A program made the position numbers and the translations under genes. The notes below the pieces were generated by a model that was not told the origin of the DNA, did not search any database, and saw only the letters and a program-made list of their open reading frames with translations. From assembly GCA_963666515.2 (NCBI GenBank), contig OY762897.2:4288001-4352000 (forward strand): DNA of 64,000 nt. Direction: 5' to 3'. This document shows, one piece after another, positions 33,861 through 39,219 of the stretch (the stretch's first letter is position 1; every line of letters begins with the position of its first letter). This DNA comes from Candidatus Binatia bacterium (lineage in GTDB: Bacteria; Desulfobacterota; Binatia; UBA9968; JAJDTQ01).

Positions 33861-34193
33861 CTAACTGTCTTGAGCGACTCCCCATATAGACTGAAGAAGG
33901 CTTCTCAACTGGTTCCTGGCGAACGCGGGGGTGGCAGCGTGGTCCAGCCACCGAACCGCAACTTCCTCGGCTTGGGCAAACTGCTTGGCCTTGTAGTGCA
34001 GCGAGACCGCGCTCACCACAGAGATGCCGAGCGTCCGCGTTTTGGACGCGTCCAGGTCGGCAAGGGCACTTACCTCGGCATCGGCGGCACGGGCATACAA
34101 GTCGAAAGCTTCTTGCTTCCGACCTTCGCGCAGGGCCGCTTGTGCGTCAGAAGCCAGACGCTCACTGACCTCGTGGTGTTCGATCCAGGACAT
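33861..34193 (-). CDS. Hypothetical helical protein, possibly truncated
   Basis: MSWIEHHEVSERLAS... 110 aa, starts right after the hsdM fragment. Confidence 0.5.
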   Translation of the reverse strand: MSWIEHHEVSERLASDAQAALREGRKQEAFDLYARAADAEVSALADLDASKTRTLGISVVSAVSLHYKAKQFAQAEEVAVRWLDHAATPAFARNQLRSLLQSIWGVAQDS

Positions 34194-34194
34194 T

Positions 34195-34446
34195 GAGCTT
34201 GCTGATGGTGTTGTAGAAGGCGAAGCCCGAGGCCGTGCGAAGCGCTCCGTCCGGGTCATGCAGTCCGCGCTGGTTCAACTCCGCCTAGCGCTTGAGCGCC
34301 TCCCCCTTGGGGTCCGCCAGCACGCAGTCGAGCCGGCGCAGCACTGTCAGCGGCAGGATGACGTCCTGATACTTCCTGCGCTTGAAGCTGTCGCGGATCA
34401 GGTCCGCGACGCTCCAGAGGAAGCTGACGATCTCGCTGTGGTTCAT
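34195..34446 (-). pseudogene. 5' fragment of a second hsdM
   Basis: MNHSEIVSFLWSVADLIRDSFKRRKYQDVILPLTVLRRLDCVLAD near-identical to the start of hsdM at 43122; premature TAG and internal deletion. Confidence 0.88.
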
Positions 34447-34697
34447 GGGGCTACTCTTTCACCTGTCTTTCTCTGCGGCGGCTGCCTGTGACTGCTCGCC
34501 AAGCACACTGAGCCCCCAGACGAAGTCATGGTACCGTAGCCAGTGCGACAAGCGCAAACGGGGGCGTCAGAAAATTGGCACCTAACTAGAATCCTTGATC
34601 GACAGGATCTTGACTCAGGAAGACAAGATATTTGAACTGGACTTCGTTCGTACATGAATACTATCGTAGGCCATCGCGAGTTGTAACGCTCGGTAGT

Positions 34698-36305
34698 TTA
34701 AGCGACGAGCTTCGCCTCATCGCAAATGGCATCGAGGTTCCTGGTGATGGCGGCAAAGCGCCGATGGGTCTTGGTATTGCCGCTCACGGCGTCGGGCGCA
34801 AGATGGGCCAGGCCGGGGCGAAGGATGCGGTTGTAGACACGCGTGTAGAACATCGCCACCTTGAGGCCGTGTTCGGTCAAGTGGTAGCGGTAGGCGCCGG
34901 GGATGCGCTCGATCAGGCCGTGCAGGCGCAGGCGTCTCAGGTCGTAACTCATTCGGCCCGGGCGCATTGGACTGGGATCGAGGCCCAGGAGTGCACCGAG
35001 GTGCCCGCGCAGGTCGCGGTTGGAGAAGCCGCGGGCCGAAAGAGTGAACAAGAGCAGGGCCTGCATCAGAGCCTGCACGCGCTCATCGGCGAAGCGCAGG
35101 GCCGAGGCGCGTTGTCCGTGGAACTCCAGGCCGCGTTGATGGCGTTGGAGTTCGTCTTCACCCAGGGCACAGTCGTGGCTGATGGTTTCTATCTGCAACA
35201 GACGACGGTTGGCTGTGAAGCCGACCTGGCACAACGCCGCCAGGTTAGACAGCCGCCGGCCCAGGGCGAAGTCATAGGTGTCGTTGACGGTGGTCTCGGT
35301 GCGCAGCGCCTGCCCTTCCTTGTGGTACTGCTTGATGCGCGAGTGCTTGTAGTCCACGTGCAAGGAAGGGGTGACGCCTGCGGTGATGACCCGGGTACGG
35401 AACCGACCGGGGGTGCGCCGGGTGACCCGGCGCTGGAAGATCAACTGCACCTGGCTGGGGCGACCGAGATCGAGGTTCTCGCGGATCACGTCCTCGAAAA
35501 AGACGCGGCCCGAGGCCGGGCGGTCGAGCACCTGGGTCAGGCTGAACTCCGCTTGCAGGATGGAGATGTCGTAGCGCAGACCGGCGCGACGGTCCTGAGG
35601 CGTATACGGATGCGGCAGGCGATCGAACCACTTGCGCGCCAGTCTGTCGATGAAAGCGGCATCGAAGCCTTCGCAGATCTGTTGCAGCGCCTCGGGGTCT
35701 CCGCAGCAGCGCACGCCGTTGTCCAAAGCCTCGAACGGGATGCCGCGCTCGCGCAACTGGCACTTGGCGTACTCGTTGCCGTTGAGGCACAGCTTGCCGT
35801 TGTACGGGAAGTAGGTGCAGAACTTGATGAAGAACGGCCCCGCCTGTTTGTCCACGCAATAGAAATACACATGGTTGACCATCGCGGTAGACGAGACCAC
35901 CCACGGATAGGTGACCCCGGTGTCCGGGTTCCGGCGCCGCTCGGTGCGCATCACACGGGCCTTCTCCTGCGCTATCCCGATGTACAAAACCCCTTCGGTT
36001 CCCTTGAACCGCCCCAGGTACTCCTGCGTCACCTCGTCCTTGCGCTGGCCCTTCTTGAAGTGCACCACCTCGATCTGCTCCCGCTCCGCAAAGTCCTTCA
36101 CCGCCTGCACGAACTCCCGACTCTTGGGCGCCAGCGCCACCGTCGACGCAAACCGCTGGCCATGGTGCTTGTGCAGATACCCCACTACCCCGCCCACGCT
36201 CTGCAACTGCGGCACATACAGGTTCAAGTACAGGCGATCCACCGACTCGTATTCCAGCGTCACGTGATCGCGCAATACTTCCGCTACGGTTTGTGGTAGG
36301 CTCAT
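34698..36305 (-). CDS. 535-aa putative transposase/replication-initiator-like protein with C-terminal winged HTH
   Basis: MSLPQTVAEVL start; IKQYHKEGQALRTETT motif; C-terminal GFSNRDLR...SYDLRRLRLHGLIERIPGAYRYHLT; no DDE, HUH or recombinase motif recognised. Confidence 0.7.
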   Translation of the reverse strand: MSLPQTVAEVLRDHVTLEYESVDRLYLNLYVPQLQSVGGVVGYLHKHHGQRFASTVALAPKSREFVQAVKDFAEREQIEVVHFKKGQRKDEVTQEYLGRFKGTEGVLYIGIAQEKARVMRTERRRNPDTGVTYPWVVSSTAMVNHVYFYCVDKQAGPFFIKFCTYFPYNGKLCLNGNEYAKCQLRERGIPFEALDNGVRCCGDPEALQQICEGFDAAFIDRLARKWFDRLPHPYTPQDRRAGLRYDISILQAEFSLTQVLDRPASGRVFFEDVIRENLDLGRPSQVQLIFQRRVTRRTPGRFRTRVITAGVTPSLHVDYKHSRIKQYHKEGQALRTETTVNDTYDFALGRRLSNLAALCQVGFTANRRLLQIETISHDCALGEDELQRHQRGLEFHGQRASALRFADERVQALMQALLLFTLSARGFSNRDLRGHLGALLGLDPSPMRPGRMSYDLRRLRLHGLIERIPGAYRYHLTEHGLKVAMFYTRVYNRILRPGLAHLAPDAVSGNTKTHRRFAAITRNLDAICDEAKLVA

Positions 36306-36309
36306 GTCC

Positions 36310-36451
36310 GGCTCCGGTTGCTTCGGGCTTTTATGCCCATTTGACCCTTTGAGGTCCGACCTTGCAAGGTCCCATGACCAGGGATTCAATCCCTGCTACA
36401 AGCGACCGGAGCCAATCCCCTTACCCCCTCGTCGGTCTGAGGCGAAGCCTC
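36310..36451 (-). other. Multi-branched structured leader (RNA or ssDNA)
   Basis: 14-bp closing stem 36310-36323/36400-36413 enclosing four hairpins, plus a terminal hairpin at 36439-36451. Confidence 0.65.
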
Positions 36452-36493
36452 GCTAGTTGATTTGACATGTAATTTGGGAATTATAAAGAATAC

Positions 36494-36522
36494 TTGACAG
36501 CCCCTCCGTAATCCTGTATGCT
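36494..36522 (+). promoter_or_regulatory. Sigma70-like promoter of the IS1595 transposase
   Basis: TTGACA-17 bp-TATGCT overlapping the left TIR. Confidence 0.6.
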
Positions 36523-36550
36523 CATTACATCAACTCAAGGGAGCACGGCA

Positions 36551-37537
36551 ATGGGCAAACAGAAGGCACCGGGCAAGAGTTACCGCAAGGGGTTGTCGGT
36601 ATTCGAGCTGTTCGAGATGTTCCCGGACGAGGCGGCGGCGCGCCGCTGGTTCGAGGGCGTCCGGTGGGCTGCTGGCCGGTACTGCGGGCACTGCGGGTCC
36701 GACGACACGCATGAGGTTCCCAACGAGAAGCCCATGCCGTACCGCTGCCGGACCTGCCGCAAGTACTTCAGCGTGAAGGTCGGGACCCCGATGGAGTCCA
36801 GCAAGCTCCCGCTCCGCAAGTGGGTGGTCGCCATGTACCTGATGACCACGAACCTGAAGGGCGTCTCCAGCATGAAGATTCACCGGGACCTGAAGGTCAG
36901 CCAGCCCACGGCCTGGTTCATGATTCACCGTATCCGTGAGACGTGGAACGCCGAAGGCGGCAAGCCGTTCCGTGGCCCGGTCGAAGTGGACGAGACGTAC
37001 ATGGGCGGCAAGGAGAAGAACAAGCACTCCAGCAAGAAGTCCAAGGCCGGGCGCGGAGCCGTGGGCAAGACCGCGGTGGTTGGCATGAAGGACCGCGACA
37101 CCAACACCGTCAGCGCCGAGGTGATAGAGAGCGCCGATGGACTGACCCTGAAAGAGTTCGTGCTGGATCAGACCGGCCCGAGAACGCGCGTGTTCACGGA
37201 CGAGCACAAGGGCTACCAGGGGCTGCCGAACCACCAGACCGTCAAGCACTCGGTCGGCGAGTACGTGGACGGCATGGCGCACACCAACGGGATCGAGTCC
37301 TTCTGGTCGTTGCTCAAGCGTGGCTACAAGGGCACCTACCACAAGATGAGCGCCAAGCACCTTCAGCGGTATGTCAACGAGTTCTCCGGGCGGCACAACG
37401 TCCGGTCCAGGGACACCCTGGAACAGATGGCGGCTATCGCCCGCGGGTTCACCGGGAAGCGGCTCCGGCTCCAGGACCTCACCGGCGCGCCGGACAAGGA
37501 CGTGCCGGTAGCGGATGCTGGCAGCGATGTGTTCTAA
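36551..37537 (+). CDS. IS1595-family transposase
   Basis: Zn ribbon CGHC...CRTC, VEVDETY, FTDE, HTNGIESFWSLLKRG, YVNEF. Confidence 0.93.
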   Translation: MGKQKAPGKSYRKGLSVFELFEMFPDEAAARRWFEGVRWAAGRYCGHCGSDDTHEVPNEKPMPYRCRTCRKYFSVKVGTPMESSKLPLRKWVVAMYLMTTNLKGVSSMKIHRDLKVSQPTAWFMIHRIRETWNAEGGKPFRGPVEVDETYMGGKEKNKHSSKKSKAGRGAVGKTAVVGMKDRDTNTVSAEVIESADGLTLKEFVLDQTGPRTRVFTDEHKGYQGLPNHQTVKHSVGEYVDGMAHTNGIESFWSLLKRGYKGTYHKMSAKHLQRYVNEFSGRHNVRSRDTLEQMAAIARGFTGKRLRLQDLTGAPDKDVPVADAGSDVF

Positions 37538-37740
37538 GCTCTCGTCATCTCCGCGCGCGCCTTCGCCTTTTCGTGCTCCCATGCTTCATGTAGAAGCTCC
37601 CACGCAACAACAACGCGCGCCAGTCCGGTTAACGGACTCGGCTGTTCGTTGGGAGCGGCCTGCCTCTGGATGGCCGTGCTGTAGCGGTCATCCGCCACAT
37701 CCATGCGGTAGTTGAACTCGGCTTCCGTGAACCACGCCAT
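37534..37740 (-). CDS. Small hypothetical passenger protein
   Basis: 68 aa, GGAGG SD upstream, converges on the transposase stop. Confidence 0.45.
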   Translation of the reverse strand: MAWFTEAEFNYRMDVADDRYSTAIQRQAAPNEQPSPLTGLARVVVAWELLHEAWEHEKAKARAEMTRA

Positions 37741-38222
37741 AAGGCACCTCCGCGTCTAGTTGTGGAGGTGGTTGACAGGGTACACGGGATGCGTTACAAG
37801 GGAGGGGTCACGCCATGACACACCTCGCCTTGTAGGCACCTCCCTGCCAACTCCCTCGGTTGACAAGGACGACATAGAGCCCCTGGTTGCAGCCGGGGGT
37901 TTTGTCGTTCTGGCCAGTGTATCACGGCTCTCCAGTTCCGCAAGTTTCTCCTTGCCATCCGGCCCGTTCCGGTCTAGTCTCGCACCCGACCCATCATTCA
38001 GCGCAGGTCCCTGTGTCGGGTCCTTCGCGGAATACAAGAGCCCGTCCATGGTGCGGAGTAGCTTCCCGCACCTGGGTGAATACGCGGAACATTCACCAGC
38101 CTGTGCTGATGATGGGTCAACGGCCCGGCAATCCCGCCGGGTCGCGGCTCAGCAACGGCGCCTTGCCCACCGGGATGGATTCAACGGAACACCCACCGGG
38201 TTCCCCGCCAAGGAGGTGTTCC

Positions 38223-38807
38223 ATGCGCGCCCTTCTCGCCACCCTCACGGTGGTCTTGTTCTCGTATGCCTCGGCATTCGCCCATACGCCGCAAAAATGC
38301 GTGGCGCTGTTCCACGAAGCGGCGAAGATCAACCAGGACGCGGTTGACTGGGGCGAGCGCGTGCAGGGGACCAGCCTTGAAATGCTGGACAGCCGCGTCG
38401 GCTCTCACCGCGACCGCTACCGCCGCTACGACAGCAACCGCGTCGAAAAGCATGCCGATCTGCTCGCTCAGTTTTGGGGACGGCTCACGAAGCGTGACCT
38501 AGCCATCGCCGAAGCGGTGAAGTGCGTGGACGGGCAAGGCGCGACACCGGCCAAGGCCAAGGCGCCCGACTACCGTGCGGAGATCATCGAACACGCCATC
38601 GAGCCATGCCTTCTGGCAAAAGTTCGGCAGCAGGGACTGGACAAGACACTGGGGGAAGCGAAGGCGCTATCCCTCATGAAGCTGATGACGAAGAAATCCA
38701 CGGAGAGGTCCGTCCGGGCCTTGGAGCCCATTGTCCGTGGCAAGAACTGGAAGAGTCGAAAGGCTCTCTACGGCCAGAGCGCGGCAATCTGCGCCAAGTC
38801 GAAGTGA
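38223..38807 (+). CDS. Secreted Cys-containing hypothetical passenger protein
   Basis: AAGGAGG SD; signal peptide MRALLATLTVVLFSYASAFA; four Cys. Confidence 0.7.
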   Translation: MRALLATLTVVLFSYASAFAHTPQKCVALFHEAAKINQDAVDWGERVQGTSLEMLDSRVGSHRDRYRRYDSNRVEKHADLLAQFWGRLTKRDLAIAEAVKCVDGQGATPAKAKAPDYRAEIIEHAIEPCLLAKVRQQGLDKTLGEAKALSLMKLMTKKSTERSVRALEPIVRGKNWKSRKALYGQSAAICAKSK

Positions 38808-38814
38808 GGTTCCC

Positions 38815-39219
38815 ATGCTCATTCTCGTCTTGCTGTTGTCGTCAGGCTTGGCTCACGGCGCGGGGATCGAGGTTCCGGCCCGCGTCGTGAGCGTCTACGA
38901 CGGCGACACGGTGAAGGTGGAAGCCGCCATGTGGCCCGGCATGACCTGGAACGGCAGCGTTCGCGTCCGCGGCGTCGATACCCCGGAACTCCGTGGCAAG
39001 TGCGAAGCCGAGAAGGTCAAGGCCAAGGTGGCCCGCGACTTCGTGCGCGTCCGGATCGGCAAGCGGGTGGTACTGACCGACGTTCAGAAGGGCAAGTACG
39101 CCGGACGCGTGGTCGCGGGAATCAGGCTGGCGGACGGGTCCGACCTGACAGCCTTACTGATCCGGCAAGGCCACGGACGACCTTATGGCGGCGGACGGCG
39201 GCGCGGGTGGTGCCCATGA
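38815..39219 (+). CDS. Thermonuclease (SNase-like) family protein with signal peptide
   Basis: VVSVYDGDT, VRVRGVDTPE, GKYAGRVVA, LIRQGHG. Confidence 0.85.
   Translation: MLILVLLLSSGLAHGAGIEVPARVVSVYDGDTVKVEAAMWPGMTWNGSVRVRGVDTPELRGKCEAEKVKAKVARDFVRVRIGKRVVLTDVQKGKYAGRVVAGIRLADGSDLTALLIRQGHGRPYGGGRRRGWCP

Follow-up and report, generated by a model that had tools for sequence, protein, structure and literature searches.

The leader upstream of the only gene of an insertion-sequence-like element in the window (the whole 64,000-nucleotide stretch of Candidatus Binatia bacterium contig OY762897.2 that we analyzed) folds into a five-way junction that is conserved among related elements, and we read this junction, with about even confidence, as the structured 5' mRNA leader of the element's protein, which would sequester the ribosome-binding site in cis and lower translation. 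Four observations carry this reading: the fold itself, its conservation and covariation in relatives, the register that it keeps with the start codon, and its absence from derivatives that consist of the element's ends only. From these we infer that the leader is transcribed, that it represses translation, and what might relieve the repression.

A five-way junction upstream of the start codon

The minimum free energy (MFE) fold of positions 36300 to 36460 as RNA contains a five-way junction on the minus strand of the window, at 36310 to 36413, in which a closing stem (P1) encloses four hairpins (P2 to P5):

36400 to 36413, minus strand: P1 5' arm (fold and repeat finder; in the window clade, defined below, 5 of 13 P1 pairs have compensatory changes)
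36379 to 36395, minus strand: hairpin P2, a 7-bp stem with a 3-nt loop (fold; 4 of 6 pairs compensatory in the model-fitted alignment)
36358 to 36371, minus strand: hairpin P3 (fold; compensatory change at 1 of 5 pairs)
36343 to 36356, minus strand: hairpin P4, the extra arm of the window clade (fold; 4 of 4 pairs invariant in 11 sequences)
36325 to 36338, minus strand: hairpin P5 (fold; compensatory change at 1 of 5 pairs)
36310 to 36323, minus strand: P1 3' arm with the Shine-Dalgarno (SD) sequence GGAG, the complement of 36312 to 36315 (sequence, fold, and repeat finder)

The two 14-nt arms of P1 are 93% complementary by the repeat finder, the one exception being a mismatch (C.A) when read on the gene (minus) strand and a wobble (G.T) when read on the plus strand. 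The start codon ATG is the reverse complement of 36303 to 36305; P1 ends at 36310, which leaves 4 unpaired nucleotides before the ATG, and the GGAG within its 3' arm lies 6 nt upstream of the ATG. The initial annotation of this DNA had proposed the same closing stem and the same four hairpins, with the stem ending 4 nt before the ATG and covering the GGAG, and the MFE fold reproduces all of these at the same coordinates. The annotation had drawn the structure from 36306 to 36452; the junction within that extent stands, and 36414 to 36452 proved to be a spacer and a separate terminal hairpin that lie outside it. Folding is also better than that of shuffled sequences, a comparison that the annotation had set for the structure: the leader has an MFE of -66.1 kcal/mol against a shuffle mean of -53.4 (SD 4.1; z = -3.11), and none of 200 dinucleotide shuffles was equally stable. 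Folded as DNA, the plus strand gives the mirror image (z = -3.38; 0 of 200 shuffles).

The junction corresponds to no described RNA family that we could find. A cmscan search of 4,227 Rfam models against both strands of 34000 to 39000 at E ≤ 1 placed no family in or near the leader, and its sole match was a fluoride riboswitch at 35132 to 35198 (plus strand; 16 bits against a gathering score of 34; E = 0.75) that lies inside the open reading frame (ORF). A tRNA-like reading was rejected on stem and loop sizes that are incompatible with a cloverleaf, and a ribozyme reading on the finding that no ribozyme family in Rfam matched the leader. A short upstream ORF in the window's junction (ATG at 36341 to 36339) is unconserved, with ATT in its place in relative L092. 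An apparent second, antisense copy of the junction within the ORF (L042:2757-2866, minus strand, and six similar places; model R1, E = 1e-4 to 6e-3) was treated as chance, since the L042 stretch folds no better than its shuffles (z = -0.65; 49 of 200).

Conservation and covariation among relatives

From 69 genome loci and 72 metagenome loci we collected the leader, taking at most 175 nt ahead of the start; with the window this gave 129 distinct sequences. We scored a junction as present when a Watson-Crick-only fold had a closing stem that ended at most 25 nt from the start and enclosed at least three hairpins. By this measure the junction is present in 119 of the 129 leaders (three hairpins in 80, four in 32, five in 6, and six in 1), and it occurs across Pseudomonadota, Acidobacteriota, Actinomycetes, Verrucomicrobiota, and other groups. 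The ten that failed comprise a junction-less lineage (L028, L035, and L165), a 5'-truncated copy (L130), one with a wrongly placed start (L085), and five that need G.U pairs or carry mutations (L024, L142, L143, L075, and L164). The four-hairpin form of the window is common to it and ten relatives (L013, L026, L092 to L094, and L096 to L100), which together make up the window clade, and 10 of these 11 sequences fold in this way unaided.

Covariation among homologous leaders, which the initial annotation had named as a check on its structure, is present in both clades that we analyzed. In a plain MAFFT alignment of the window clade, 85.4% of cells are paired (shuffles, 81.4 ± 0.6; 0 of 500 as high) and 8 of 33 pairs have changed on both sides, a count matched by 1 of 500 shuffles; MAFFT places P2 one column out of register in five of these sequences, and a model-fitted alignment raises the count to 11 of 33 compensatory pairs (0 of 500 shuffles), distributed as five in P1, four in P2, and one each in P3 and P5. 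The four-way (three-hairpin) clade, with 67 distinct sequences in a model-fitted alignment, has compensatory changes at 17 of 31 pairs (4.5 ± 1.3 in shuffles; 0 of 500 as high), spread over all four helices and including 6 of 14 in P1; pairing stands at 97.2% and falls to 41 to 49% when the partners are slid by one column. Two of these three counts come from model-fitted alignments, which lean towards structure, and the sequences are related to one another, so that the shuffle controls overstate significance and independence. The hairpin P4 is neither supported nor contradicted by covariation because its pairs never vary.

P1 also persists where its sequence does not. Distant clades have wholly different P1 sequences that still pair (CCGCTTGCG with CGCAAGCGG, GGACTCCGT with ACGGAGTCC, and GGCCTCTGG with CCAGAGGCC), and in L146, L056, L039, and L044, where P1 differs, the 3' arm still contains a purine-rich SD, with matching changes in the 5' arm. 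Its conservation in relatives, with compensatory changes, sets the junction apart from a chance fold, and the comparison of leaders indicates that the structure is real and selected.

The element and its ends

The junction lies within an insertion-sequence-like element of about 1.87 kb (34586 to 36456), whose parts on the gene strand are as follows:

34586 to 36456, minus strand: whole insertion-sequence-like element, 1,871 bp including CTAG at both ends (nine 100%-identical copies; empty-site contigs)
36453 to 36456, minus strand: CTAG, the 5' end of the element on the gene strand; CTAA in many relatives (copy comparison)
36439 to 36451, minus strand: 5' subterminal hairpin, GAGGC-3 nt-GCCTC (sequence, folds, and conservation; retained in miniature derivatives)
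36414 to 36438, minus strand: 25-nt spacer from the terminal hairpin to the junction (length varies among relatives)
34698 to 36305, minus strand: single ORF of 535 amino acids (P0001), with a predicted N-terminal TBP-like saddle at about residues 15 to 378 and a predicted C-terminal winged helix at 382 to 506
34586 to 34697, minus strand: 3' non-coding end, with the terminal CTAG at 34586 to 34589 and a local hairpin at 34607 to 34629 around the palindrome TGAGTCAAG

A 2-kb query recovered nine 100%-identical copies of the element from the window's genome, together with two short degenerate pieces at one further site. The aligned copies have sharp boundaries at 34586 and 36456 with CTAG at both ends, and their flanks are unrelated, with only CTAG in common; the nine-copy alignment contains no terminal inverted repeats at the element's ends. 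In two of four DNA-type runs (X3 and X4), contigs pass directly from 34585 to 36453, the two sides having 4 letters in common, an empty-site form from other samples that skips 1,867 bp and keeps a single CTAG; with short sides of 25 and 23 nt, the joint is suggestive of an unoccupied site. Because the empty site has one CTAG and the insertion has one at each end, a target duplication of 2 to 4 bp is indistinguishable from none. The right-hand neighbor, at 36518 to 37534 on the plus strand, is an ordinary IS1595-family transposase gene.

Both ends of the element carry hairpins. The 5' subterminal hairpin is conserved across the family, with a GGGGC/GCCCC version in one clade, and the 3' ends of relatives and of miniature derivatives keep a related motif, AAACTTGACTCA, plus a hairpin; the stability of the whole 115-nt 3' end is ordinary (z = +0.42). 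Among related metagenome contigs, many have about the length of the element itself.

The encoded protein

The 535-amino-acid product P0001 belongs to a large and unnamed family. It matched no family in Pfam or NCBIfam at E ≤ 0.01; PDB sequences gave no named family, with weak MarR-type matches only in a profile search (best E = 0.085); Foldseek returned nothing for the whole model against PDB at E ≤ 1e-3; and the nearest clusters in the ESM Atlas are unnamed. A word-indexed search recovered more than 8,000 matches, of which those named by their source are "hypothetical protein" and most lie on contigs of about 1.8 to 2.9 kb, and the family numbers 10,355 representatives at 50% identity (E ≤ 1e-3). 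Matches on 28 plasmids fall on features annotated as hypothetical or uncharacterized, or in several places on no annotated feature, with the exception of one weak (25%) match under an ArsR regulator.

Two domains are predicted by an AlphaFold model (mean pLDDT 83) for which 27 diverse sequences were the input. Residues 382 to 506 of the predicted model form a winged helix of the PadR/MarR type (Z about 9). The N-terminal domain was also modeled alone (pLDDT 81), and the seven best rows of its comparison with 48,161 chains are all TBP-fold proteins, among them 1mp9_B (Z = 8.3, 182 residues aligned), 7o4i_O (7.7), and 5fur_A (7.5); the Rep_trans rolling-circle initiators 4cij_A (192 aligned) and 4cwc_A (176 aligned), both with Z = 6.4, are likewise among the seven. 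The domain is thus predicted to be a TBP-like pseudo-dimeric saddle, and Z values of this moderate size speak to fold and not to function. A search of the BFVD viral models gave 13 matches at E ≤ 1e-3, A0A2N9QVX7 being one of them, with A0A345MNV4 at 1.4e-3; viral TBPs were also returned, and both of these accessions are named as Rep-Arvir matches in PMC13107129.

Comparison with these initiators suggests what the protein may do. The same 2026 report describes archaeal Rep-Arvir (DUF7845) as a TBP-like catalytic domain followed by a winged helix, with a catalytic tyrosine, essential acidic residues, and a DNA hairpin origin, and gives DNA hairpins at origins as the substrates of Rep_trans and Rep-Arvir enzymes (PMC13107129). 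P0001 likewise has a predicted TBP-like pseudo-dimeric domain, with a winged helix after it as in the described architecture of Rep-Arvir. Across the 27 sequences, whose identity goes down to 29%, residues D23, E114, Y147, E253, K325, Y327, and R335 are invariant and E337 almost invariant; these residues fall in predicted sheet strands, where conserved Asp/Glu and a Tyr in a K-x-Y-x-K context would parallel what is described for Rep_trans and Rep-Arvir enzymes. They may form a putative nuclease active site. None of the 27 diverse members matches the Pfam models of Rep_trans (PF02486) or DUF7845 at E ≤ 1, and we have therefore filed P0001 in neither family. The gene also differs from those of Rep_trans and Rep-Arvir in its setting, since it lies in a 1.87-kb multicopy chromosomal insertion element and not in a plasmid, phage, or conjugative element. 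In the literature we found no insertion sequence with a TBP-fold or Rep_trans-like transposase, nor this leader; the family may already be named in ISfinder. On the predicted structure, the P0001 family may be a new class of transposase.

The junction is tied to the start codon

The position of the junction follows the gene. GGAG occurs within 22 nt of the start in 123 of the 129 leaders, with a spacer of 6 nt in 98 and 7 nt in 17, and in 113 of these 123 the MFE fold pairs three or more of the four GGAG bases. Between the 5'-end motif and P1, the 55 leaders measured have 36 to 89 nt (median, 75; one outlier at 155). Because the GGAG spacer is fixed and the distance to the end varies, the junction is in register with the translation start and not with the end of the element.

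Derivatives that have lost the gene bear on the same point. The 5'-end motif has 23 matches in five genomes (the reversed control has none), and 6 of these 23 places have no homologous ORF alongside. These six include two miniature elements, 127 and 123 nt long, that are 82% alike and occupy different sites, and a third, partial copy exists. They share one internal architecture, a CTAG-bounded 5' hairpin joined to a 3' end with AAACTTGACTCA plus a hairpin; both ends are kept, and a length of 123 to 127 nt is too short to accommodate the junction. The internal join that these miniatures have in common suggests movement of a single miniature ancestor, from which it would follow that the ends suffice in cis. 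Three distinct members of the family lack the junction and retain intact frames of 546 to 557 amino acids behind a leader of about 68 nt (L028, which equals L149; L035; and L165). Taking together the register with the start, the miniatures without a junction, and the junction-less lineage with intact genes, the junction appears to belong with gene expression rather than with DNA mobility.

A putative brake on translation

Under our preferred reading, that the junction is a cis-acting cover of the ribosome-binding site, the G+C-rich closing helix P1 would pair an upstream segment of the element with the GGAG 6 nt before the ATG, so that a transcript carrying the whole leader would have its ribosome-binding site buried. 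The three or four inner hairpins would keep the two distant arms of P1 together, and they could also dock a factor that locks the helix or opens it; the element's own DNA-binding protein is a candidate for this factor. As in SD-sequestering leaders, the SD sits in a helix with an upstream segment of the element, and that helix is under selection by the P1 changes in both clades. The initial annotation had offered a cis-regulatory RNA as one of its readings, and that proposal gains from the placement of the SD in the P1 3' arm at a fixed spacing from the start, from the covarying helices, and from the way that the junction travels with the gene.

The source of the message is part of this picture. 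No sigma-70-like promoter emerged from a scan of the element's gene strand, and for this reason read-through from outside may be a source of transcripts, perhaps the main one. Three further candidates were considered and rejected: TTGCAA-17-TCAAAT inside the junction and the AT-rich linker after P2 (69% A+T against 34% for whole junctions), each inspected by eye, both fail the scan's criteria and are unconserved across clades, and a promoter across a circle junction would draw on a conserved TTGACT near the 3' end that has no -10 at workable spacing (three elements, by eye).

Leaders of this general kind are known from other insertion sequences. In IS10 the antisense RNA-OUT pairs with the mRNA leader and controls translation, read-through transcripts of IS10 and IS50 are silenced by fold-back inhibition with simpler structures, and IS200 has a stem-loop in its 5'-UTR. 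In ISPpu9, the long 5'-UTR of the transposase mRNA folds into a structure that probably takes in the ribosome-binding site and that limits translation of the mRNA made by the element itself; weakening of that structure raised translation, and the antisense RNA Asr9 controls translation by pairing with the leader (PMC8450116). As in the leaders of ISPpu9, IS10/IS50, and IS200, an upstream segment of the element here pairs with the ribosome-binding site of the putative transposase gene, and low translation would be expected, especially from read-through. The present leader differs from these in that its closing helix spans about 75 nt and three to four hairpins where theirs is a single stem-loop, in that its hairpins covary (P4 of the window clade being invariant), and in that the element and its protein lie outside those families.

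Several points count against the preferred reading. A junction with three or four hairpins exceeds what is needed to cover an SD; an SD that is always buried, together with the lack of an internal promoter, leaves production of the protein unexplained; and the gene strand has an excess of A.C mismatches while the two strands are equal in energy, as set out next.

Strand of the folded molecule

Single mismatches within the junction helices, counted on the gene strand, are of the A.C type in 57 cases, of the G.U type in 9, and of other types in 34. They fall mostly in P1, often as a C opposite the A of GGAG, and recur in several clades; on the opposite strand, each A.C mismatch is a G.U or G.T wobble. 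Part of the A.C excess, but not all of it, arises because the SD constrains the 3' arm of P1 and changes accumulate in the 5' arm, and a mismatch at the A of GGAG might be useful in itself, by loosening the helix at the ribosome-binding site. Other signals point to the gene strand: a U.G pair at the base of the last hairpin is present in 59 of 67 sequences of the four-way clade and would be an A.C mismatch on the other strand, and the sense fold has 255 G.U pairs compared with 177 in the antisense fold. Mean energies of whole junctions under RNA parameters are -54.07 for sense and -53.61 for antisense (P = 0.19). The signals contradict each other, the strand test is ambiguous, and we did not use it to decide the strand.

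Other readings of the junction

The junction might do more than restrain translation. It would then be an RNA or single-stranded DNA (ssDNA) partner of a transposase of a new class: a tyrosine nuclease of TBP fold, similar to Rep_trans and carrying a winged helix, which mobilizes an insertion sequence bounded by CTAG and ending in hairpins. We regard this as unlikely. Were it true, the elements would join the HUH Y1 and Y2 elements as a third mechanistic type of prokaryotic transposon that moves by a single-strand or rolling-circle-like route, with a folded cofactor of its own.

A separate reading is a stable non-coding RNA that serves the protein as a scaffold, a donor-end RNA, or a target-recognition RNA, in the manner of the bridge/seek RNAs of IS110/IS1111 or the omega/re RNAs of nucleases related to IS200/IS605. 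The shape of the junction, more elaborate than SD occlusion calls for, would suit such a role, as would its helices, which covary as in functional RNAs and include the invariant P4 of the window clade, and an RNA acting in trans is compatible with miniatures that lack the junction. IS110 elements encode a bridge RNA in their non-coding end, and, as with the IS110/IS1111 bridge and seek RNAs, the structure here lies in a non-coding end of an insertion sequence without terminal inverted repeats (PMC11187229). The RNAs described there have loops complementary to a long, specific target and donor, and a DEDD recombinase as partner (PMC11187229); here the targets share only CTAG, the protein is a predicted TBP-fold and winged-helix protein, and the ribosome-binding site forms part of the structure. 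No family in Pfam or NCBIfam, DEDD_Tnp_IS110 and Transposase_20 included, was matched by P0001, which is thus not recognized as a DEDD or RuvC-type enzyme. Because the nine identical copies lie in nine flanks that are unrelated beyond CTAG, a fixed RNA cannot specify long targets; the guide-like RNA for target choice that the initial annotation had offered as an option is set aside on this ground, and no bridge or guide RNA family matches. The loops vary between close relatives with no evident partner (a 6-nt complementarity between P2 and the 3' end, present in two elements in different arms and absent from a third by eye, was judged to be chance), no Rfam family matched in or near the leader at E ≤ 1, and the junction-less lineage persists. 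We consider a partner RNA distinctly unlikely.

Another reading is a folded ssDNA used in transposition, either a recognition structure for the TBP-fold protein or a site of the single-strand-origin (sso) type at which synthesis of the complementary strand of an ssDNA intermediate is primed. ssDNA transposons of the IS200/IS605 group have subterminal hairpins, no terminal inverted repeats, and a fixed tetranucleotide at their junctions, and the element resembles them in each respect, with subterminal hairpins at both ends, a fixed CTAG, and no terminal inverted repeats; P0001 has no Pfam match to the Y1 HUH transposase (Y1_Tnp) that marks that group. The predicted N-terminal domain resembles both TBP and the Rep_trans initiators, which are nucleases acting on DNA hairpins, either strand of the junction folds well as DNA (plus strand, z = -3.38), and the gene-strand A.C mismatches (57 against 9 of the G.U type) are G.T wobbles on the other strand. 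The available part of PMC13107129 describes no counterpart of the junction in Rep_trans or Rep-Arvir replicons. The miniatures with both ends and the lineage with intact genes do without the junction, which argues against the cis requirement of a single-strand origin; the distance from junction to element end varies from 36 to 89 nt while the register with the start codon is fixed; the conserved U.G pair favors the gene strand; and the terminal hairpins, present in every form, are the probable cis sites of the protein. The ssDNA origin that the initial annotation had considered thus loses ground to the miniatures, the junction-less lineage, and the variable end distance, and retains in its favor the fold of the protein and the mismatch pattern of P1; we judge a role for the junction as folded DNA to be quite improbable.

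Least probable of all is that the selected structure belongs, wholly or in addition, to a plus-strand antisense RNA that crosses the leader and controls translation by pairing, since, although the A.C mismatches concentrated in P1 would be wobble pairs in such an RNA, its fold is as stable as the sense fold, and a terminator-like hairpin with a T run stands on the plus strand at 36313 to 36327, the promoter scan found no promoter-like site on the plus strand inside the element, the T run comes from a P5 loop found in the window only (the loops of relatives differ), the conserved gene-strand U.G pairs would be mismatches, and the sense fold has more G.U pairs.

Implications

That a leader helix can bury the ribosome-binding site and limit an insertion sequence's transposase was known; new here is this RNA family, a covarying four- or five-way junction without an Rfam match, which we favor as a brake on translation. 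Greater novelty may lie in the element and its protein than in the leader: the predicted fold would link the family to rolling-circle nucleases and not to any transposase class that we found in the literature. Current genome annotation misses these elements, and the leader, the terminal hairpins, and the miniatures form a ready set of cis elements. Should the protein prove to be a Rep_trans-like nuclease, the family would constitute an undescribed and widespread superfamily of insertion sequences.

Insertion site and ends of the element

Contigs from two runs link the flanks of the element directly at the joint 34585/36453, skipping 1867 bp and sharing the CTAG, which indicates that the insertion is missing from some samples. 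The element's target includes at least CTAG, and this CTAG-sharing joint fits a 2- to 4-bp duplication and no duplication equally. The 5' end of the element, with ends named on the gene strand, is directly adjoined by an IS1595-family transposase gene (36518-37534, plus strand, within 36457-37537, plus strand), accompanied by two sigma-70-like promoter matches at 36462-36522; contig depth over 36457-37537 is far below that over the element.

At the 3' end, the near-palindrome TTGA(C/G)TCAA precedes a hairpin that covaries, and approximately 10 nt separate this hairpin from the terminal CTAG. The near-palindrome and hairpin arrangement (34607-34629, minus strand, in the window) is conserved at the 3' ends of relatives and retained in miniature derivatives, and the near-palindrome may be a binding site of the winged-helix domain of the encoded protein.

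Miniature and degenerate copies

Three miniature copies were recovered:

L172:1397-1523, minus strand, miniature element of 127 nt
L192:1501-1623, plus strand, miniature element of 123 nt
G005:C3:60412-60470, partial copy of a miniature element

The 127- and 123-nt miniatures occupy different sites in the same genome and are 82% alike. These two miniatures each keep both ends of the element, namely, a hairpin bounded by CTAG at the 5' end and the AAACTTGACTCA motif, a hairpin, and CTAG at the 3' end, while the gene and the junction are missing. The window's own genome (G000) also holds a degenerate remnant of the element at G000:C1:2645424-2645643, which shares 90 to 92% identity with the element over two separate segments and is matched weakly by the covariance model of the leader fold (37.7 bits; E value of 5e-6).

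Variation in leaders and start codons

Across 101 leaders, the multiloop linker that joins the first junction hairpin to the second (36372-36378 in the window) is 69% A+T (449 of 653 nt), compared with 53% in the other junction linkers and 34% in whole junctions; frequent forms resemble TATAAG, CATGAG, and GTATTT.

In one clade (the L060-L086 group of loci), the element's first 24 nt recur as a perfectly complementary inverted repeat located 8 nt upstream from the junction, giving a long additional helix at the 5' end. An example is as follows:

L064:546-640, stretch with the inverted 24-nt repeat

One genome carries a solo 83-nt palindrome of this type with no adjoining gene (L177:1501-1583).

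A separate lineage (L028, identical to L149; L035; and L165) has intact frames of 546 to 557 amino acids and a leader of ~68 nt that lacks the junction; translation in this lineage likely starts at an ATG located 8 codons before the usual family start. In another clade (L039, L041, L047, L050, L052, L088, L159, and L162), a non-start codon, TCG or TCC, aligns with the family ATG and is overlapped by an ATC one base upstream; the usual position of GGAG and of the closing stem is kept, and translation may begin at an unusual codon or at a shifted site.

The encoded protein

The 535-amino-acid protein (34698-36305, minus strand) belongs to an unannotated and very large family, with 10,355 representatives (50% identity) at an E value of ≤1e-3. 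Residues D23, E114, Y147, E253, K325, Y327, and R335 are invariant in an alignment of 27 diverse homologues. The predicted fold combines a TBP-like saddle with a winged helix and resembles the Rep_trans and Rep-Arvir rolling-circle nucleases, and the protein may represent a new class of transposase.
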